Of a stretch of DNA of 64,000 nucleotides, positions 1-10,330 are shown one piece after another. Numbering within the stretch: position 1 is the first letter of the stretch; each line of letters opens with the position of its first letter. Source of the DNA: a phage; NCBI GenBank assembly GCA_030980935.1, contig GCA_030980935.1_3059.1. One strand, given 5' to 3'. A program made the translations under genes and the position numbers. The notes under the pieces were generated by a model. It did no database searches, was not told the origin of the DNA, and was given only the letters and a program-made list of their open reading frames with translations.

Positions 1-2380
1 CACCACATTCTCTTTTGCTGATGATATTATCATCACTCCTAAAAAGCTGAATGAAAGAACTGCTACAGAAACTCGCAGAGGTGTTGCAGAAATTGCTACT
101 CAGCAAGAAACAAACGCAGGAACAGATGATACAACCATCATTACTCCTAAAAAGCTTCAAGCTCGTCAAGGTTCTGAATCATTATCTGGTATTGTAACTT
201 TTGTATCTACTGCAGGTGCTACTCCAGCTTCTAGCCGTGAATTAAATGGTACGAATGTTTATAATAAAAACACTAATAATTTAGTTGTTTCGCCAAAAGC
301 TTTGGATCAGTATAAAGCTACTCCAACACAGCAAGGTGCAGTAATTTTAGCAGTTGAAAGTGAAGTAATTGCTGGTCAAAGTCAGGAAGGATGGACAAAT
401 GCTGTTGTAACGCCAGAAACGTTACATAAAAAGACATCAACTGATGGAAGAATTGGTTTAATTGAAATTGCTACGCAAAGTGAAGTTAATACAGGAACTG
501 ATTATACTCGTGCAGTCACTCCTAAAACTTTAAATGACCGTAGAGCAACTGAAAGTTTAAGTGGTATAGCTGAAATTGCTACACAAGTTGAATTCGACGC
601 AGGCGTCGACGATACTCGTATCTCTACACCATTAAAAATTAAAACCAGATTTAATAGTACTGATCGTACTTCTGTTGTTGCTCTATCTGGATTAGTTGAA
701 TCAGGAACTCTCTGGGACCATTATACCCTTAATATTCTTGAAGCAAATGAGACGCAACGTGGTACACTTCGTGTAGCTACACAAGTTGAAGCTGCTGCAG
801 GAACATTAGATAATGTTTTAATAACTCCTAAAAAGCTTTTAGGTACTAAATCTACCGAATCGCAAGAAGGTGTTATTAAAGTTGCAACTCAGTCTGAAAC
901 TGTGACTGGAACGTCAGCGAACACTGCTGTATCTCCAAAAAATTTAAAATGGATTGTGCAGAGTGAACCTACTTGGGCAGCTACTACTGCAATAAGAGGT
1001 TTTGTTAAAACTTCATCTGGTTCAATTACATTCGTTGGTAATGATACAGTCGGTTCTACCCAAGATTTAGAACTGTATGAGAAAAATAGCTATGCGGTAT
1101 CACCATATGAATTAAACCGTGTATTAGCAAATTATTTGCCATTAAAAGCAAAAGCTGCTGATACAAATTTATTGGATGGTCTAGATTCATCTCAGTTCAT
1201 TCGTAGGGATATCGCACAGACGGTTAATGGTTCACTAACCTTAACCCAACAAACGAATCTGAGTGCCCCTCTTGTATCATCTAGTACTGCTACGTTTGGT
1301 GGATCAGTTTCGGCAAATAGTACATTAACTATTTCTAATACTGGAACGGCAACTCGTCTGATTTTTGAGAAAGGACCTCAAACTGGAACTAACCCAGCAC
1401 AGACGATGACTATCAGAGTTTGGGGAAATCAGTTTGGTGGCGGATCAGATACAACGCGTTCTACTGTATTTGAAGTTGGTGATGAAACATCTAATCACTT
1501 TTATTCTCAACGTAATAAAGATGGGAATATAACGTTTAGCATTAATGGTACTGTGATGCCAATAAATGTTAACGCTTCAGGCACGTTAAATGCGAATGGC
1601 GTTGCAACATTCGGTCGTTCAGTTACAGCCAACGGTGAATTCATTAGCAAGTCTGCAAATGCTTTCAGAGCAATTAGTGGTGATTACGGATTCTTTATTC
1701 GCAATGATGCTGCTAATACCTATTTTATGCTCACTGCATCCGGTGATCAGACTGGCGGATTTAATGGATTACGTCCTTTGTCTATTAATAATGCATCTGG
1801 CCAAGTAACGATTGGTGAAAGCTTAATCATTGCCAAAGGTGCTACTATAAATTCTGATGGTTTAACTGTTAACTCGAGAATTCGTTCTCAAGGTACTAAA
1901 ACATCTGACTTATATACCCGTGCGCCAACATCTGATACTGTAGGATTCTGGTCAATTGATATTAACGATTCAGCCACTTATAACCAGTTCCCGGGTTATT
2001 TTAAAATGGTTGAAAAAACTAATGAAGTGACTGGACTTCCGTACTTAGAACGTGGCGAAGAAGTTAAATCTCCTGGTACACTGACACAGTTTGGTAACAC
2101 ACTTGATTCGCTTTACCAAGATTGGATTACTTATCCAACGACACCAGAAGCGCGTACCACTCGCTGGACACGTACATGGCAGAAAACCAAAAACTCTTGG
2201 TCAAGTTTTGTTCAGGTATTTGACGGAGGTAACCCTCCTCAACCATCTGATATCGGTGCTTTACCATCTGATAATGCTACAATGGGGAATCTTACTATTC
2301 GTGATTTCTTACGAATTGGTAATGTTCGCATTATTCCTGACCCAGTGAATAAAACTGTTAAATTTGAATGGGTTGAATAA
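1..2380 (+). CDS. 34: Long tail fibre proximal subunit gp34, C-terminal part only (5-prime end lies upstream of window)
   Basis: Reading frame open from window start (track ORF 302-2380 is an internal Met); repeated ..TPKKL..AEIATQ.. motifs; followed by 35-36-37-38-t as in T4. Confidence 0.85.
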   Translation, partial: TTFSFADDIIITPKKLNERTATETRRGVAEIATQQETNAGTDDTTIITPKKLQARQGSESLSGIVTFVSTAGATPASSRELNGTNVYNKNTNNLVVSPKALDQYKATPTQQGAVILAVESEVIAGQSQEGWTNAVVTPETLHKKTSTDGRIGLIEIATQSEVNTGTDYTRAVTPKTLNDRRATESLSGIAEIATQVEFDAGVDDTRISTPLKIKTRFNSTDRTSVVALSGLVESGTLWDHYTLNILEANETQRGTLRVATQVEAAAGTLDNVLITPKKLLGTKSTESQEGVIKVATQSETVTGTSANTAVSPKNLKWIVQSEPTWAATTAIRGFVKTSSGSITFVGNDTVGSTQDLELYEKNSYAVSPYELNRVLANYLPLKAKAADTNLLDGLDSSQFIRRDIAQTVNGSLTLTQQTNLSAPLVSSSTATFGGSVSANSTLTISNTGTATRLIFEKGPQTGTNPAQTMTIRVWGNQFGGGSDTTRSTVFEVGDETSNHFYSQRNKDGNITFSINGTVMPINVNASGTLNANGVATFGRSVTANGEFISKSANAFRAISGDYGFFIRNDAANTYFMLTASGDQTGGFNGLRPLSINNASGQVTIGESLIIAKGATINSDGLTVNSRIRSQGTKTSDLYTRAPTSDTVGFWSIDINDSATYNQFPGYFKMVEKTNEVTGLPYLERGEEVKSPGTLTQFGNTLDSLYQDWITYPTTPEARTTRWTRTWQKTKNSWSSFVQVFDGGNPPQPSDIGALPSDNATMGNLTIRDFLRIGNVRIIPDPVNKTVKFEWVE

Positions 2381-3566: not shown

Positions 3567-4232
3567 ATGGCTGATTTAAAAGTAGGTTCAACAACCGGAG
3601 GCTCTGTCATTTGGCATCAAGGAAATTTTCCATTGAATCCAGCCGGTGACGATGTACTCTATAAATCATTTAAAATATATTCAGAATATAATAAACCACA
3701 GGCAGCTGATAACGATTTCGTTTCTAAAGCTAATGGTGGTACTTATGCATCAAAGGTAACATTTAACGGCGGCGTCCAAGTCCCGTATGCTGTAAACAAC
3801 ACAAACCCATGCGGTATTTATCCAGGTAACGGTGATAATGCTACTTTTGCTGTAGCAAATATTGATATTGTTTCGTGGAATGGTATTGGTTTTAAATCAT
3901 CGCAAGGTTCAGCAGCCCGAACTGTTGTAATTAATGCACGTAATGGTGATATTAATACAAAAGGTGTTGTGTCTGCGGCAGGTCAAGTAAGAAGTGATGC
4001 AGCTGCTCCTATAGCAGCGAATGACCTTACTAGAAAGGACTATGTTGATGGAGCAATAAATACTGTTACAGCAAATGCAAACTCTAGAGTGTTACGATCT
4101 GGTGACACTATGACGGGAAACTTAACCGCACCAAACTTTTTCTCGCAGAATCCTGCATCTCAACCTTCACATGTTCCACGATTTGACCAAATCGTAATTA
4201 AGGATTCTGTTCAAGATTTCGGCTATTATTAA
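3567..4232 (+). CDS. 36: Long tail fibre distal connector gp36
   Basis: 221 aa as in T4; TATAAATA late promoter about 25 nt upstream. Confidence 0.85.
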
Positions 4233-4240
4233 GAGGACTT

Positions 4241-7200
4241 ATGGCTACTTTAAAACAAATACAATTTAAAAGAAGCAAAACCGCAGGTGCACGTCCTGCT
4301 GCTTCAGTATTAGCCGAAGGTGAATTGGCTATAAATTTAAAAGATAGAACAATTTTTACTAAAGACGATTCAGGAAATATCATTGACTTAAGCATTTCCG
4401 CTGGCGGTAATATTAGTGGAAATATCACTCAAACTGGCGATTATACACAGACTGGAAAATTTAATTTAATTGGTCCGCAAATTGTAGCAAGCGGTGGATA
4501 TATTGAGTTTAATTATCGTACTACTGGAAGTGGGGCTTGGTCCGGTCAACACACTGCAAAGGCTCCAATTTTTGTAGATTTAAGCTCAGCTACTTCCACA
4601 TCTGAATATAATCCTATAATTAAACAGCGCTTTAAAGATGGAACTTTTTCATTAGGTACTTTAGTTTCTGAAGGTTCGTTGAAGATTCATTATATCAATG
4701 AATCTGGCGATTCGAAATATTGGACGTTTCGACGTGACGGCGGATTTGTTGTTGACGGTGGAGGTTTAGCAGTATCAGGAGGTAGTATAACTACATCTGG
4801 AAATATTGCAGCTCTCGGAAATATTACTTCGCCTCAGATTAATACTAAAAATATTATTTTAGATACAAAAGCATTTGGACAATATGATTCACAGTCATTA
4901 GTTCAATATGTTTATCCTGGAACAGGTGAAGAAAATGGCATAAACTATCTTCGTAAAGTTCGAGCTAAATCAGGCGGAACTATTTACCATGAAATCGCTT
5001 CAGCTCAAACTGGTAAGAATGATGAAATTTCTTGGTGGACCGGAAATACACTTACTACTAAATTAATGGGTCTTCGTAATGATGGCGCAATGGTATTACG
5101 TCGTTCACTTGCTATTGGCACAATTACCACTGACGAAAATACTAACAACTATGGTTCTCCTACTCCAATGGGAGAAAGATATATTGCTTTGGGCGATGCT
5201 GCCACTGGTTTAAAATACATTAAGCAGGGCGTTTATGATTTAGTAGGTAATTGGAATTCTGTTGCGTCTATTACTCCTGATAGTTTCCGTAGTACTCGTA
5301 AAGCGATATTTGGACGTTCAGAAGACCAAGGTGGAACATGGATTATGCCTGGAACTAACGCTGCGCTTTTATCAGTTCAAACTCAAGCTGATGGAAACTC
5401 CGCTGGTGATGGTCAAACACACATTGGATATAATTCTGGCGGTAAAATGAACCACTATTTTCGTGGTACAGGTCAGATGAATATCAATACCCAACAGGGT
5501 ATGGAAATTAATCCAGGAGTGTTAAAATTAACCACTGGGGCAAATAATGTAATGTTATACGCGGACGGCGGTATTACATCTGTTAAGCAGCTTTCAATAT
5601 ACAATGGGGTGTATTTAGCAGCTAATAATTCTACTGCTGGGCTAACATTCGCTCCAACTACTACAATTGATGGCACTAAGCAAATTTTGTGGGAAGGCGG
5701 TACTCGTGCTGGTCAGAATAAAAGCTATGTAACTGTTAAAGCATGGGGTAATTCATTTAACGCATCTGGCGATCGTAATCGTGAAACGGTTTTTGAAGTA
5801 GCTGATGGACAAGGATATTATTTTTATTCACAGCGTGTGGCTCCAAGTGGCTCTGAAACTACTGGGCCTGTTGTAACCCAGTTCAATGGACAAGTTAATG
5901 CTAGAGGAAGTATTATTACTGACGGAAGTTTTAAAGTTAATGGATTAAGCACTTTAGTCGGTAATGTTACTATGTCTAATGGTTTGTTTGTCCAAGGTGG
6001 TTCTTCTATTACTGGACAGGTAAAAATTGGTGGAACGGCTGATGCATTAAGAATTTGGAATGCTGAATACGGTGCTATTTTCCGTCGTTCTGAAGATAAG
6101 TTTTATATTATTCCAACCCCACAGAATGCGGGTGAATCAGGCGGCATTTCTAATTTACGTCCGTTCTATATTACATTAAGTAATGGTAAAGTTTCCATGG
6201 ATCATGATGTAGATATCGGCGGCGGTAGATTTAAAGTAGAAGTGGCTGGAACTACTGCTAATCAACGCATAACAGTAAATATGGCATCAGATGCTATTAG
6301 AATAAATGCTCCAACACAAGAGTCTTCTAACTTCATTCAAGGACGTAAGGCTGATGTGCCTAAATGGTATTTGGGTATTGGCGATGGCGGCAACGTCGTT
6401 CGTATGCACAGCTACACATATTCACATGGTATTGCATTAAATTCTGATTCTGTCGATATTACTAAGCCTTTTAAAGTCGGAAATGCACAATTAGGAACTG
6501 ACGGTAATATTACCGGTGGTTCAGGAAACTTTGCTAATTTAAACAGTACAATTGAATCATTAAAAACCGATATTGTTTCAAGTTATCCTATTGGAGCTCC
6601 TATTCCATGGCCAACGGATACTCCTCCTGACGGTTACGCTATTATGGAAGGCCAGACTTTTGATAAGTCTGCATACCCAAAATTGGCTATGGCTTACCCA
6701 TCTGGCGTAATTCCAGATATGCGCGGGCAAACTATTAAAGGTAAACCAAGTGGTCGAGCTGTATTAAGCGCAGAAGCCGATGGTGTTAAGGCTCATAGCC
6801 ATAGTGCATCGGCTTCAAGTACTGACTTGGGTACTAAAACTACATCAAGCTTTGATTATGGTACTAAAACATCTTCAAGCTTTGATTATGGTACTAAGAC
6901 TAGTAACACCACAGGAAACCATAACCATACAGTGAGTGGTAATACTAGTTCCGCCGGTGCGCACCAACACAACGAAGGGACGTATTTTTCATCGTACGGA
7001 TACTTTATGAACGGATACAATACTCGCCAGTCATCGGGAGCTGCCATCGAAACATCCAATAGACAAGGCATAGCGTTTTATGGTAAAACCTCTAGTGCTG
7101 GTGCCCACACTCATAGTTGGTCAGGAACCACGAGTACTACAGGTAACCATGCTCATACTGTAGGTATAGGTGCTCATACCCATACTGTAGGTATAGGTGC

Positions 7201-7318
7201 TCATACCCACACGGTAGCAATTGGCTCACATGGTCATACTATCACTGTAAATAGTACAGGTAATACAGAAAACACGGTTAAAAACATTGCTTTTAACTAT
7301 ATCGTTCGTTTAGCATAA
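4241..7318 (+). CDS. 37: Long tail fibre distal subunit gp37 (receptor-binding)
   Basis: 1025 aa (T4 about 1026); C-terminal His-box repeats [16 protein letters not shown] and tandem GTKT.SSFDY repeats. Confidence 0.9.
6830..6889 (+). repeat. Tandem 30-bp coding repeat inside gene 37 (GTKT.SSFDY)
   Basis: ggtactaaaac..tcaagctttgattat occurs twice in tandem. Confidence 0.7.
7157..7209 (+). repeat. Tandem 27-bp coding repeat inside gene 37 (His-box HTVGIGAHT)
   Basis: actgtaggtataggtgctcataccca repeated in tandem. Confidence 0.7.
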
Positions 7319-7323
7319 GGAGA

Positions 7324-7337
7324 GGGGCTTCGGCCCC
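7324..7337 (+). other. UUCG hairpin between SD and AUG of gene 38
   Basis: GGGGC-TTCG-GCCCC between AAGGAG and the ATG at 7346. Confidence 0.6.
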
Positions 7338-7345
7338 TTCTAAAT

Positions 7346-7897
7346 ATGAAAATATATCATTATTATTTTGACACTAAAGAATTTTACAAAGAAGAAAATT
7401 ACAAACCGGTTAAAGGCCTCGGTCTTCCTGCTCATTCAACAATTAAAAAACCTTTAGAACCTAAAGAAGGATACGCAGTTGTATTTGATGAACGTACTCA
7501 AGATTGGATTTATGAAGAAGACCATCGCGGCAAACGAGCATGGACTTTTAATAAAGAAGAAATTTTTATAAGTGACATTGGAAGCCCGGTTGGTATAACC
7601 TTTGATGAGCCCGGCGAATTTGATATATGGACTGATGACGGTTGGAAAGAAGACGAAACATATAAACGCGTTTTAATTCGCAATAGAAAAATTGAAGAAT
7701 TATACAAAGAATTCCAAGTTTTAAATAATATGATTGAAGCTTCTGTCGCGAATAAAAAGGAAAAATTCTATTATAAAAACCTTAAGCGGTTCTTTGCTCT
7801 TTTAGAAAAGCATGAGCATTTAGGTGGTGAATTTCCTAAATGGCCTGAAAAAGAACAGAAGCCTTGGTATAAGCGTTTATTCAAGCATTACGTATAA
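7346..7897 (+). CDS. 38: Tail fibre assembly protein gp38 (T4-type, 183 aa)
   Basis: 183 aa, position after gene 37; SD separated from AUG by a UUCG hairpin. Confidence 0.8.
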   Translation: MKIYHYYFDTKEFYKEENYKPVKGLGLPAHSTIKKPLEPKEGYAVVFDERTQDWIYEEDHRGKRAWTFNKEEIFISDIGSPVGITFDEPGEFDIWTDDGWKEDETYKRVLIRNRKIEELYKEFQVLNNMIEASVANKKEKFYYKNLKRFFALLEKHEHLGGEFPKWPEKEQKPWYKRLFKHYV

Positions 7898-7900
7898 ATA
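7893..7900 (+). promoter_or_regulatory. Late promoter core TATAAATA upstream of holin t
   Basis: Exact TATAAATA about 18 nt before t ATG. Confidence 0.7.
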
Positions 7901-7917
7901 TCTTAAAAGGAGGGTCT

Positions 7918-8574
7918 ATGGCAGCACCTAGAATATCATTTTCGCCCTCTGATATTCTATTTGGTGTTCTAGATCGCTTGTTCAAAGATAACGCTACCGG
8001 GAAAGTTCTTGCTTCCCGGGTAGCTGTCGTAATTCTTTTATTTATGATGGCGATTGTTTGGTATAGGGGAGATAGTTTCTTTGAGTACTATAAGCAATCA
8101 AAGTATGAAACATACAGTGAAATTATTGAAAAGGAAAGAAATGCACGCTTTGAATCTGTCGCCCTGGAACAACTCCAGATAGTTCATATATCATCTGAGG
8201 CAGACTTTAGTGCGGTGTATTCTTTCCGCCCTAAAAACTTAAACTATTTTGTTGATATTATAGCATACGAAGGAAAATTACCTTCAACAATAAGTGAAAA
8301 ATCACTTGGAGGATATCCTGTTGATAAAACTATGGATGAATATGCAGTCCATTTAAATGGACGTCATTATTATTCCAACTCAAAATTTGCTTTTTTACCA
8401 ACTAAAAAGCCTACTCCCGAAATAAACTACATGTACAGTTGTCCATATTTTAATTTGGACAATATCTATGCTGGAACGATAACCATGTACTGGTATAGAA
8501 ATGATCATATAAGTAATGACCGCCTTGAATCAATATGTGCTCAGGCGGCCAGAATATTAGGAAGGGCTAAATAA
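7918..8574 (+). CDS. t: Holin T
   Basis: 218 aa, N-terminal TM segment, TATAAATA late promoter at 7893-7900, strong SD AAGGAGGG. Confidence 0.85.
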   Translation: MAAPRISFSPSDILFGVLDRLFKDNATGKVLASRVAVVILLFMMAIVWYRGDSFFEYYKQSKYETYSEIIEKERNARFESVALEQLQIVHISSEADFSAVYSFRPKNLNYFVDIIAYEGKLPSTISEKSLGGYPVDKTMDEYAVHLNGRHYYSNSKFAFLPTKKPTPEINYMYSCPYFNLDNIYAGTITMYWYRNDHISNDRLESICAQAARILGRAK

Positions 8575-8847
8575 TTATTTGTTCGTATACATCTCTAGAT
8601 ATCGATATACACCCTCAAAACCCTCGTTGAATTCGTCGATGAGGGTTTTCTTATCTTCTTGAGTTAATTCAGAAACAATTTTACGGAATGAATTCTGATT
8701 TAACTTTCTACCTTCATGCGTTACTCCAATCTCATTCAGAAATGCAATAAAATTAGCACGATTCTCAACAATATCTTCTCTGGAAAATTTAATCAAAATA
8801 GACGCAACAGTAATAATTTCACGAACTGTATCAATGTTTTTATTCAT
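8575..8847 (-). CDS. asiA: Anti-sigma70 protein AsiA
   Basis: 90 aa; sequence recognised as T4 AsiA (MNKNIDTVREIITVASILIKFSRED...). Confidence 0.95.
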   Translation of the reverse strand: MNKNIDTVREIITVASILIKFSREDIVENRANFIAFLNEIGVTHEGRKLNQNSFRKIVSELTQEDKKTLIDEFNEGFEGVYRYLEMYTNK

Positions 8848-8859
8848 TAACTATACCAC

Positions 8860-9012
8860 TCAATTAGTTGACTTTGTTATAATATCATCAGACGCTTGAT
8901 TTGTAAACTGGTCTGTGGTATTTTCTTCAAAAATTTTTTCTACGAATTCCTTGAACGACTTACGTTCCTGAGCTACATTATGCTCGATTACCTTTTCAAG
9001 ATTATGACTCAT
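8860..9012 (-). CDS. Small hypothetical protein (50 aa) between asiA and arn
   Basis: ORF below track length cutoff; ATG overlaps arn stop by 1 nt (translational coupling). Confidence 0.4.
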   Translation of the reverse strand: MSHNLEKVIEHNVAQERKSFKEFVEKIFEENTTDQFTNQASDDIITKSTN

Positions 9013-9287
9013 TCGAAATAATCTTCAATTTCGTAATCATGGACGTAAATCATTATAGTTTTTAATACATCATCAATACTTTTTCCTGGAGCTGGAATTA
9101 CGTAAAAATATCCTGCTTTTGAGAGGTCTTTATAAGTTCCAACCAAGAAATCATTATTCTCGAGATGTAGTTCTTCAACTAATTCATTAACAATTGAGTG
9201 GTATAAATTTGGTAGAAACTTATATAGCTTTTCTAGAATATCAATTTTGATTGTGTATTGAACCACGGACTGAGAATCAATAATCAT
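9009..9287 (-). CDS. arn: Anti-restriction nuclease Arn (McrBC inhibitor)
   Basis: 92 aa, acidic, position asiA-arn-motA as in T4. Confidence 0.75.
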   Translation of the reverse strand: MIIDSQSVVQYTIKIDILEKLYKFLPNLYHSIVNELVEELHLENNDFLVGTYKDLSKAGYFYVIPAPGKSIDDVLKTIMIYVHDYEIEDYFE

Positions 9288-9370
9288 AGACCTTCCCCTT
9301 ATGTTTCTGTTTGCGATTAGATTCTTTAAACGCTTTCTTCTTATCTTTATGAAGAGAAGCTTTATTAAAA

Positions 9371-9589
9371 TTATGTTTTGCGACTAAATTGTTCATAGTG
9401 CTGAATTACCTCTCTTAAACATTTGCATGTGAATGAAAACTTTTTAGCTACACCACATTCAAATATATGTTCTCTTAAATCGCGTGTATCGGTATATCCC
9501 ATCTCAACAATAAAATGCCGTATTAGATTTTTATCTTTATCATTGAGAGAATTAAAATAATCAGATTTTGAATTAATTTCCCTGGCCAA
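9371..9589 (-). CDS. Hypothetical early protein (arn.x-like)
   Basis: 72 aa ORF in arn-motA cluster, same strand as neighbours. Confidence 0.5.
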   Translation of the reverse strand: MAREINSKSDYFNSLNDKDKNLIRHFIVEMGYTDTRDLREHIFECGVAKKFSFTCKCLREVIQHYEQFSRKT

Positions 9590-9869
9590 ATTGAATCACC
9601 TTCAGTTGACGTTTTAATTCTTTTATCATTTCTTCGTTCATCGCAATATAAAGATCGCGTAAAGCAGGTTTTAGCATTCCATTTACTGGAGAACTAAATG
9701 GACATACATAATCTTTTCCTACAAGCTTTTTGGTGAATTCCATATCGCAGAACTTAAATCCCGGCTCATTGGTATAAATTCCCCAATTAGTTGACATCAT
9801 TTTATTAGCATATTCCAGTGCCTGGATTTGATTCATAATTCCATCAATTTGAAACTTTTTAATATTCAT
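9573..9869 (-). CDS. Hypothetical early protein
   Basis: 98 aa ORF, tightly packed in arn-motA cluster. Confidence 0.5.
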   Translation of the reverse strand: MNIKKFQIDGIMNQIQALEYANKMMSTNWGIYTNEPGFKFCDMEFTKKLVGKDYVCPFSSPVNGMLKPALRDLYIAMNEEMIKELKRQLKVIQFGQGN

Positions 9870-10330
9870 TAGTAAAGGTCCTCAGAGTAAAGTTCTTTTT
9901 CACTACCACCACGTTCAATACGTACTTGTCCAGCGTAAGTTGCAATAATCATTGCTTCTTCACGTGTCCAATAATTACTGTATTGGTCAATAAACCCTTG
10001 GTCATCATCACAAACTTGTTGAGTAACTAATTGAGGTTTAACTACATCTAAAACTTCTGCCATATCTTTAGAATAATGACGAGCACCTGGAATAACAAGA
10101 GTTCGTCCATCTTTTAATTTAAAACGGTTGGCTGCGCAAACAATTCGTCGTTGATACTTTTGATTTTCGTCCCAATATGCAGTCTGCCAACAGAGTTCAG
10201 GAACTTCTTTCAGAATATCTTCTTCTGTGCATTTATAACCATGTGCTTTAAATTTTTCAACAAGACTTTCTGGAGTTTCACGAGATAAAGGAACATTCAG
10301 CATTTTTAAACGATTAATAAATGGGTTCAT
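9869..10330 (-). CDS. Hypothetical early protein
   Basis: 153 aa ORF; stop/start overlap with neighbours. Confidence 0.55.

Follow-up and report, generated by a model that had tools for sequence, protein, structure and literature searches.

The tip of the T4 long tail fibre subunit gp37 (PDB 2XGF; Bartual et al., 2010) is the closest described counterpart of the locus considered here. Domain D11 of T4 gp37 is an insertion in the collar and consists of a stem formed by residues 882-931 and 960-1009 (50 + 50 aa), a tip subdomain (932-959) and seven irons (PMC6957217). At the head the chain reverses direction, and the resulting needle has six strands and seven di-histidine motifs (PMC12609058). 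Iron binding by these HxH boxes has an established structural role in T4 (PMC6957217, PMC12609058), and mutagenesis and co-evolution work on T4 has placed the determinants of specificity in the tip subdomain (PMC6957217; PMC13559767). HxH motifs also occur in the cell-puncturing spikes P2 gpV and Mu gp45, where three motifs of the trimer hold one iron on the three-fold axis (PMC11821841, PMC12609058). Unlike the needle described below, these beta-helix spikes carry only one such site, located at the tip, possess neither a hairpin nor a repeated ladder, and are without sequence homology to it. The variant of the needle stem with eight HxH boxes is not new. It has been on record since the sequences of phages TuIa and TuIb appeared in 1990, and it is common in sequenced relatives.

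The stretch of phage DNA analyzed, referred to as the window, comprises 64,000 nt of contig GCA_030980935.1_3059.1, and positions are numbered within it (Table 1). It contains the genes for gp36, gp37, gp38 and the holin t, in that order. A search of PDB sequences with phmmer matched residues 2-272 of the tip query to residues 2-242 of the T4 gp37 tip chain (2xgf_A, E = 4e-96). Together with the gp38 chaperone encoded downstream, this match bears out the original prediction that the gene encodes gp37 and that the region is its receptor-binding tip. From its sequence, the protein appears to belong to the T4-type tip family, with the collar, iron needle and head of 2XGF. The product of gene 38 is identical to T4 gp38 at 182 of 183 aa. 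It is thus a T4-type chaperone required for folding a gp37 of the T4 type, and no adhesin of the T2 type is encoded. Gene 37 itself is a mosaic by megablast and sliding identity: its N-terminal part is nearest to phage SHBML-50-1, and positions 5800-7500 are identical to Shigella phage JK45. An AlphaFold2 model of the 272-aa tip, built from a 52-sequence alignment, was confident in the collar alone (mean pLDDT 56.8, pTM 0.29), as is to be expected when an intertwined trimer is modeled as a monomer.

Table 1. Features of the gp37 tip and neighboring genes in the window.
Feature	Position	Strand	Residues and units	Evidence
Gene 37, long tail fibre distal subunit gp37	4241..7318	+	1025 aa + stop	ORF list, translation, Pfam, megablast, sliding identity
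Pfam gp37_trimer			aa 685-759	Pfam
Pfam PF07484 Collar			aa 785-832	Pfam; 43.9 bits, cut-off 24
N-terminal part of collar domain (D10)	6578..6790	+	aa 780-850 (T4 811-881)	2XGF alignment, Pfam Collar; T4 limits from PMC6957217
Outgoing (ascending) needle-stem arm	6791..6970	+	aa 851-910, 60 aa (T4 50)	2XGF alignment; PMC6957217
HxH boxes 1-3	6794-6802, 6920-6928, 6962-6970	+	Start aa 852 HSH, 894 HNH, 908 HQH	
30-bp tandem repeat	6830..6919	+	6830-6859 (aa 864-873), 6860-6889 (aa 874-883), 6890-6919	Tandem Repeats Finder (30-bp period, 2.4 copies, 6830-6902, 86% matches, score 118), copy comparison, alignments
Head (tip subdomain)	6971..7087	+	aa 911-949, 39 aa (T4 28)	Alignments; T4 tip subdomain 932-959 (PMC6957217)
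Returning (descending) needle-stem arm	7088..7264	+	aa 950-1008, 59 aa (T4 50)	2XGF alignment; PMC6957217
HxH boxes 4-8	7106-7114, 7148-7156, 7175-7183, 7202-7210, 7229-7237	+	Start aa 956 HTH, 970 HAH, 979 HTH, 988 HTH, 997 HGH	
27-bp tandem repeat	7154..7234	+	7154-7180, 7181-7207, 7208-7234; in protein frame VGIGAHTHT (7160-7186), VGIGAHTHT (7187-7213), VAIGSHGHT (7214-7240)	Tandem Repeats Finder (27-bp period, 2.4 copies, 7154-7217, 94% matches, score 114), copy comparison, alignments
C-terminal strand re-entering collar	7265..7315	+	aa 1009-1025	Alignments with homologues
Gene 38, T4-type chaperone (tail fibre assembly protein)	7346..7897	+		Comparison with T4 gp38, T4 annotation note

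The tip closely resembles that of T4. The collar, the needle, the C-terminus, the HxH boxes and the order of the elements are alike, as is the neighboring gp38, which is 99% identical. The sole large differences from 2XGF are 10 aa added before the head, 9 aa added after it, and the head itself, which has no evident sequence similarity to that of T4. The additions correspond to a further 10-aa unit in the outgoing arm and a further 9-aa HxH unit in the returning arm, and the protein possesses eight HxH boxes while T4 has seven. Together the boxes cover nucleotides 6794-7237. On the outgoing arm, a His-free spacer made up of three units of 10 aa lies between boxes 1 and 2, and a 14-aa interval leads on to box 3. 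The boxes of the returning arm are spaced at 14, 9, 9 and 9 aa, so that the spacing is mirrored around the variable head (42, 14, head 48, 14, 9, 9, 9 aa). The C-terminal strand is kept in most homologues, although a few have divergent C-termini.

The repetition reported in the original prediction is real, and every peptide quoted there is found in the translation of the gene 37 ORF. At the DNA level, the first two 30-bp copies are identical at 27 of 30 positions, and the third unit has decayed to 15 of 30. The first two 27-bp copies are identical throughout (27/27), with a diverged third unit (16/27). Exact periodicity in the ORF extends over at most 29 nt, with a period of 27, while the longest runs in 300 codon shuffles had a mean of 8.8 and a maximum of 15, so the repetition exceeds what is expected by chance. 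The two repeats belong to the two arms of the well-known needle, studded with iron, in which a T4-like tail fibre ends.

Among deposited phages, the nearest relatives carry the same arrangement. The tip of the window is 99.9-100% identical to those of deposited phages, including JK45, and over positions 6500-7400, which include both arrays and the head, JK45, the Citrobacter phage PhiZZ6 and the Escherichia phage JLBYU31 are 99.3-99.9% identical. These three phages share the head of the window with the Citrobacter phage PhiZZ23, in which each of the two arrays is nevertheless shorter by one unit. From 6870 to beyond 9900, PhiZZ23 and the window are about 100% identical, except for a clean indel of one 27-bp unit, and this is exactly the unit that T4 lacks in alignment. 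On the outgoing arm of PhiZZ23, one 30-bp unit fewer is found at a recombination junction, and the sequence upstream of nucleotide 6870 is diverged. The literature search found no papers on PhiZZ6 or PhiZZ23, and the host field of JLBYU31, consulted for a clue to the receptor, names an uninformative pst deletion strain.

The gp37 proteins of TuIa and TuIb (X55190, X55191) possess a stem of identical architecture, with both extra units and spacings of 42, 14, head, 14, 9, 9 and 9 aa. Their two 27-bp copies differ at 3-4 positions, while those of the window are identical. Their heads are also different: the head interval is 55 aa rather than 48, and the head of the window is unrelated to those of TuIa, TuIb and T4. 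In work of 1990 by Montag et al., TuIa and TuIb are said to use OmpF and OmpC.

Where the two arrays are compared across homologues, their lengths prove to be coupled. The survey covered 219 complete, non-identical homologous tips, which are related to one another, and n denotes how many 9-aa HxH intervals the returning arm contains. The His-free spacer of the outgoing arm measures exactly 12+10n aa in 215 tips, with n = 1 in one, n = 2 in 98, n = 3 in 108, n = 4 in six, and n = 5 and n = 6 in one each. Three of the four inexact tips are off by a single residue, and the fourth has lost an HxH box; none of the 219 shows a mismatch of a whole unit between the arms. This is not the behavior of a contingency-type hypervariable repeat, in which the arrays would vary freely and independently. 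All 219 tips have as many 14-aa HxH intervals on one arm as on the other. In a permutation test, 212 of 216 tips were concordant, compared with at most 123 in 10,000 permutations. A tree built from framework residues requires at least 37 changes of n, a figure obtained from a tree that is confounded by recombination. The same module of collar, needle and head, with mirrored HxH boxes and the same rule, is present in the side tail fibres (Stf-like) of enterobacterial prophages and in Felixounavirus fibres (such as Bas63 LTF and STF). These are 55-70% identical to the window, have other N-terminal shafts, and contain 1-6 rungs and 0-2 of the 14-aa rungs.

Copy number thus does vary (n = 1-6), yet always by matched pairs of units. 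In two respects the original prediction anticipated this result, in that the copy number differs from that of T4, each repeat having one unit more, and is variable among isolates, as illustrated by PhiZZ23 and by the range of n. Taken together, these two findings contradict a count identical to T4 and invariant among isolates, which was the outcome that the prediction had named as refuting it. The further proposal that the repeats are free-running hotspots of expansion and contraction does not hold, as the two arrays have coupled copy numbers in all the complete homologues examined. The prediction had also not recognized the two repeats, of 10 and 9 aa, as partners on opposite arms of one hairpin.

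Based on the current evidence, it is very probable that this sequence codes for domain D11, the needle, of a T4-type gp37 tip and that the repeats are matched halves of its rungs. The pairing of the halves is deduced from the arithmetic of the spacings and from the published T4 structure. The chain would exit the collar as one strand, build a small receptor-binding head and then return to the collar, so that three chains would form a needle of six strands. Metal ions, Fe2+ in T4, would be stacked in a column along its core, each held by six histidines from three copies of one HxH box. The half of a rung contributed by the outgoing arm would be the His-free 10-aa unit x-D-[L/Y]-G-T-K-T-x-x-x, and that contributed by the returning arm the 9-aa HxH unit V-G-I-G-A-H-x-H-T. 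Another type of rung would consist of a 14-aa HxH interval on each arm. Counted in this manner, the 10/9 rungs number three in the window and two in T4, and both have a single 14/14 rung. The needle of the window is therefore likely to be longer than that of T4 by one rung, an estimated 2.5-3 nm, and its trimer should bind eight metal ions instead of seven. The arms must keep register, so copy number could change in matched pairs only, and the product of slippage on one arm alone would presumably misfold and be lost. Purifying selection probably acts against unmatched arms. Part of the coupling, however, could be due to linkage and not to selection, as only some 300 bp separate the arms, which are often transmitted jointly as one cassette.

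A different interpretation is that the two arrays are independent slippage hotspots, comparable to a contingency locus, and that copy number itself tunes host range. The clean difference of a single 27-bp unit between the otherwise identical DNA of the window and PhiZZ23 fits such a process, the identity of the 27-bp copies of the window suggests that the event was recent, and copy number in homologues does span n = 1-6. In 1996, Tetart et al. reportedly found that duplications in gene 37 widen the host range of T4. These duplications reportedly contain the determinant in the head. The absence of any whole-unit mismatch indicates that the arrays are not independent, and at least three unrelated heads, those of the window, TuIa and TuIb, are borne by a stem with n = 3. 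Moreover, about 167 phage records align over at least 80% of each arm, unlike what would be expected of a rapidly switching locus. The determinants of receptor recognition have been mapped in T4 to the tip subdomain and the arrays sit in the structural stem, which also argues against the original prediction that the repeats set host range (PMC6957217, PMC13559767). Receptor specificity resides in the head and not in the repeats, and the variable head is presumed to be the segment that touches the receptor. Independent slippage, which we consider distinctly improbable, was rejected on the strict coupling of the arrays. Still less credible is an artefact of assembly or sequencing that collapsed or inflated a tandem array. 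Short tandem arrays are error-prone in general, and no support for an artefact was found here. The arrangement is identical in the independently sequenced JK45, PhiZZ6 and JLBYU31, and in the Sanger records of TuIa and TuIb from 1990. In addition, the arrays total less than 100 bp and fit well inside a single read, the reading frame is unbroken, and the arms keep their matched lengths. This explanation was rejected on the agreement of the independent records and can be given practically no weight.

A more serious competitor is the view that the repeats, the 'His boxes' of the Krisch laboratory, serve mainly as patches of homology for swapping head cassettes, with their number a by-product. In papers of 1996 and 1998, Tetart et al. 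reportedly described such 'His-box' recombination linkers flanking an adhesin cassette. In the window, the repeat regions do flank the variable head. A mosaic edge coincides with a repeat at one junction, the right edge of the diverged PhiZZ23 patch, which stops at the 30-bp repeat. TuIa and TuIb resemble the window in the two repeat regions, while the intervening heads of the three are unrelated, and a passage of Trojet et al. also speaks for this role. What this view leaves unexplained is the strict arithmetic of 10 to 9 and the equal counts of 14-aa intervals. It also does not account for the conservation of HxH in the protein of the prophage-type tips, in which the DNA of adjacent units is far more diverged (13-20 of 27 positions identical), and the role of the boxes in iron binding is established structurally in T4. 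As the principal explanation it has slightly less than an even chance. It is, however, compatible with matched rungs, and both may hold. If the repeats are matched rungs, their conservation would still provide homologous crossover points on both sides of the head, so that a head could be transferred to a stem of whatever length.

For the window itself these results have little significance, since its gene 37 is an ordinary T4-type gene. The by-product is a simple, checkable rule that links both arrays as matched rungs of a hairpin needle. This rule explains why the two copy numbers shift together, and it predicts one additional metal site for every 10/9 rung, giving eight here, and two for every 14/14 rung. 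For the engineering of chimeric tail fibres, it implies that both arms should be kept in register when heads are moved between stems. A more far-reaching idea, which we regard as rather unlikely, is that the length of the needle is quantised and open to selection. Rungs would then be gained or lost by compensated double indels, of 30 bp on the outgoing arm and 27 bp on the returning arm, and their number (1-6 in nature) would tune the reach of the head through LPS, O-antigen or capsule, and thus host range, independently of the head sequence. If this were true, the 12+10n rule and the two types of rung would amount to a design grammar for fibres of chosen length. Lastly, an antisense ORF of 61 aa (6886-7071) lies inside the head-coding region and is taken to be a chance ORF.

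The long-tail-fiber gene block of T4 lies on the + strand of the window, as indicated by the ORF list and Pfam. The 1025-aa ORF in this block was originally predicted to be gp37, and this identification is correct, as shown by its Pfam domains, by the match of its last 272 residues to 2XGF, the crystallized tip of T4 gp37 (E = 4e-96), and by the adjoining T4-type gp38. In T4, gp38 is the chaperone that folds T4-type gp37 (T4 annotation).

Features of the gp37 region (window coordinates; + strand)
Feature	nt	aa of gp37	Strand	Basis
gp36	3567-4232		+	Pfam Phage_T4_gp36
gp37 ORF, 1025 aa	4241-7318		+	Pfam gp37_trimer aa 685-759, Collar aa 785-832
Outgoing arm, 60 aa		851-910	+	T4 limits via alignment
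Two full 10-aa repeat copies	6830-6889	864-883	+	translation
Head, 39 aa		911-949	+	T4 limits via alignment
Returning arm, 59 aa		950-1008	+	T4 limits via alignment
gp38 ORF, 183 aa	7346-7897		+	182/183 identical to T4 gp38
Holin t	7918-8574		+	long-tail-fiber gene block

The tandem repeats and HxH (di-histidine) boxes described for this protein in the original prediction are real. All of the peptides quoted there occur in the translation, which contains eight HxH boxes starting at aa 852, 894, 908, 956, 970, 979, 988, and 997. Tandem Repeats Finder detected two arrays, one at 6830-6902 with a period of 30 bp (86% matches) and one at 7154-7217 with a period of 27 bp (94% matches). When compared directly, the full 30-bp copies are identical at 27 of 30 positions and the 27-bp copies at 7154-7180 and 7181-7207 at all 27. 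The perfect match of the 27-bp pair would fit a recent duplication; a decayed third unit closes each array. The exact periodic run is 29 nt, compared with a maximum of 15 in 300 codon shuffles. An artefact was rejected as the source of the repeats because independently sequenced phages show the identical arrangement. Both the feature and its form are already known. Among the matches to window 6500-7400, the GenBank records teqhad, teqdroes, and teqskov list a 'repeat_region', indicating that a repeat within or close to this stretch of the gp37-gp38 locus was marked by their depositors.

The D11 needle of T4 comprises residues 882-1009, inserted into the collar, with a stem formed by residues 882-931 and 960-1009 (50 + 50 aa); these two segments are separated by a tip subdomain of 28 aa, 932-959 (PMC6957217). 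Because each chain reverses direction at the head, the needle is six-stranded, and T4 possesses seven di-histidine motifs (PMC12609058). When these limits are carried over to the window via the 2XGF alignment, the 10-aa repeat falls within the outgoing arm, and the returning arm holds the 9-aa HxH repeat. Relative to T4, the window has 10 additional residues ahead of the head (one further GTKTxSSFDY) and nine past it (one further VGIGAHTHT), so the insertions lengthen both arms by one matched unit, giving eight HxH boxes rather than seven. In the DNA, the difference on the returning arm is exactly one 27-bp unit that is absent from T4. The head of the window also differs from that of T4 and is 11 aa longer. 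Based on the arithmetic of the sequence and the published descriptions, we deduce that the 10-aa and 9-aa repeats pair as rungs (10/9 rungs). Seven irons lie along the axis of the T4 needle (PMC6957217); for the needle of the window, we infer the metal content and the length increment. An AlphaFold2 monomer model of the tip was unusable. Antisense to the head-coding part is a 61-aa ATG ORF (6886-7071, - strand), taken to be a chance ORF.

The matching of the arms extends to homologous tips. A word-indexed search of proteins supplied 120 sequences, an exhaustive search of representatives at 50% identity listed 150 (147 of these new), and viral contigs from IMG/VR gave 80 loci; the TuIa, TuIb, PhiZZ23, and JK45 records and the T4 2XGF sequence were added. 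In each tip, the spacing between successive HxH boxes was measured downstream of the conserved PDMR motif. The spacings follow a strict mirror grammar: a spacer S, k intervals of 14 aa, the head, again k intervals of 14 aa, and n intervals of 9 aa. In 215 of 219 complete, non-identical tips, S equals exactly 12 + 10n; three of the exceptions are one residue off and one is minus an HxH box. The values of n were 1 (1 tip), 2 (98), 3 (108), 4 (6), 5 (1), and 6 (1), while k was the same on both arms in 219/219 tips (k = 0 in 109, 1 in 108, and 2 in 2). A whole-unit mismatch between the arms occurred in 0/219. Concordant pairs of S and n numbered 212/216, compared with at most 123/216 under random re-pairing, and a tree built from framework residues requires at least 37 changes of n. 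Longer tips show that the outgoing arm is built from a 10-aa motif, x-D-[L/Y]-G-T-K-T-x-x-x, which is present three times in the window and twice in T4, equal to n for each. This matched-rung rule (S = 12 + 10n, equal k) is a tidy generalization of modest interest.

Extreme needles occur in nature, among them P0119 and P0217, with six 10/9 rungs and nine HxH boxes, and P0178, with five 10/9 rungs, one 14/14 rung (a 14-aa interval on each arm), and 10 boxes; P0015 and P0238 have two 14/14 rungs each. The outgoing units of long needles alternate between DLG and FDY flavors, as if the duplication unit were 20 aa. Four E. coli proteins with a gp37-type tip (P0037, P0039, P0082, and P0091) bear the names 'terminase large subunit' or 'tape measure protein', with the corresponding Pfam domains at their N-termini; they appear to be products of fused gene calls or of mis-annotation in draft prophage assemblies.

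The window shares its head with Citrobacter phage PhiZZ23, in which each arm is one unit shorter. Between nt 6870 and a point beyond 9900, the PhiZZ23 DNA is essentially identical to that of the window, including the head, returning arm, gp38, and t, and the tract differs in length only by one clean indel of a 27-bp unit. PhiZZ23 is diverged upstream of 6870, and the edge of the diverged patch is the 30-bp repeat, again with one unit fewer in PhiZZ23. Thus, two separate events, one per arm, distinguish very close alleles whose arms are still matched, as compensation under a register constraint predicts. Linkage of the arms also contributes to the coupling seen among the 219 tips.

The outgoing-arm and returning-arm queries each aligned over at least 80% with 167 records of a phage collection, the outgoing count taking in PhiZZ23, gapped and with n = 2. 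For the T4 strains, the outgoing-arm alignment stops at the first unit and the returning-arm alignment begins at the second. Among T4-type tips of sequenced Tequatrovirus phages, the eight-box form therefore appears to be more common than the seven-box form of T4, which looks like the minority. In the frame starting at each HxH, adjacent units are identical at 22-25/27 and 22-30/30 positions in the T-even group (the 27/27 of the window refers to the repeat-finder frame), compared with only 13-20/27 in prophage-type tips. The extra rung is thus of long standing in the family, yet in the T-evens it is young or homogenized.

The original prediction treated the arrays as expansion and contraction hotspots in a region that sets host range. 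Copy number does differ from T4 and varies in nature, as in PhiZZ23 and in homologues with n from 1 to 6. In contrast, a role as independent host-range hotspots is not upheld, given the absence of tips out of register by a whole unit among the 219 and the location of the receptor contacts, mapped to the tip subdomain by alanine scanning and binding assays (PMC6957217). Likewise, every gene 37 mutation in a T4 co-evolution experiment fell in or near this subdomain (PMC13559767). Since, in addition, the n = 3 stem of the window bears at least three unrelated heads (those of the window, TuIa, and TuIb), the repeats are a scaffold rather than specificity determinants, and they are probably crossover sites. 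Duplications in gene 37 reportedly widened host range in the 1996 work of Tetart et al., as cited in later papers.

The window is a mosaic Tequatrovirus genome, and gp37 with its surroundings (4241-9900) is a recombination mosaic. SHBML-50-1 is the nearest match to the N-terminal part of gp37 (95.5% identity), and JK45 is 100% identical at nt 5800-7500 and diverged elsewhere. PhiZZ23, with ~100% identity from 6870 onward, has a diverged, indel-rich patch at 6000-6870, and AV120 shares ~97% identity over a 24-kb segment (30000-54000) that includes replication genes. The intercistronic regions of T4 classically contain stable C(UUCG)G hairpins. In the window, the gap that separates the stop codon of gp37 (7316-7318) from the start of gp38 (7346) has a GC-rich UUCG-tetraloop hairpin at 7321-7341 (GAGGGGC-UUCG-GCCCCUUC, -15.6 kcal/mol, z = -2.5), which is directly preceded by AAGGAG at 7317-7322 and is kept in PhiZZ23, JK45, TuIa, and TuIb.
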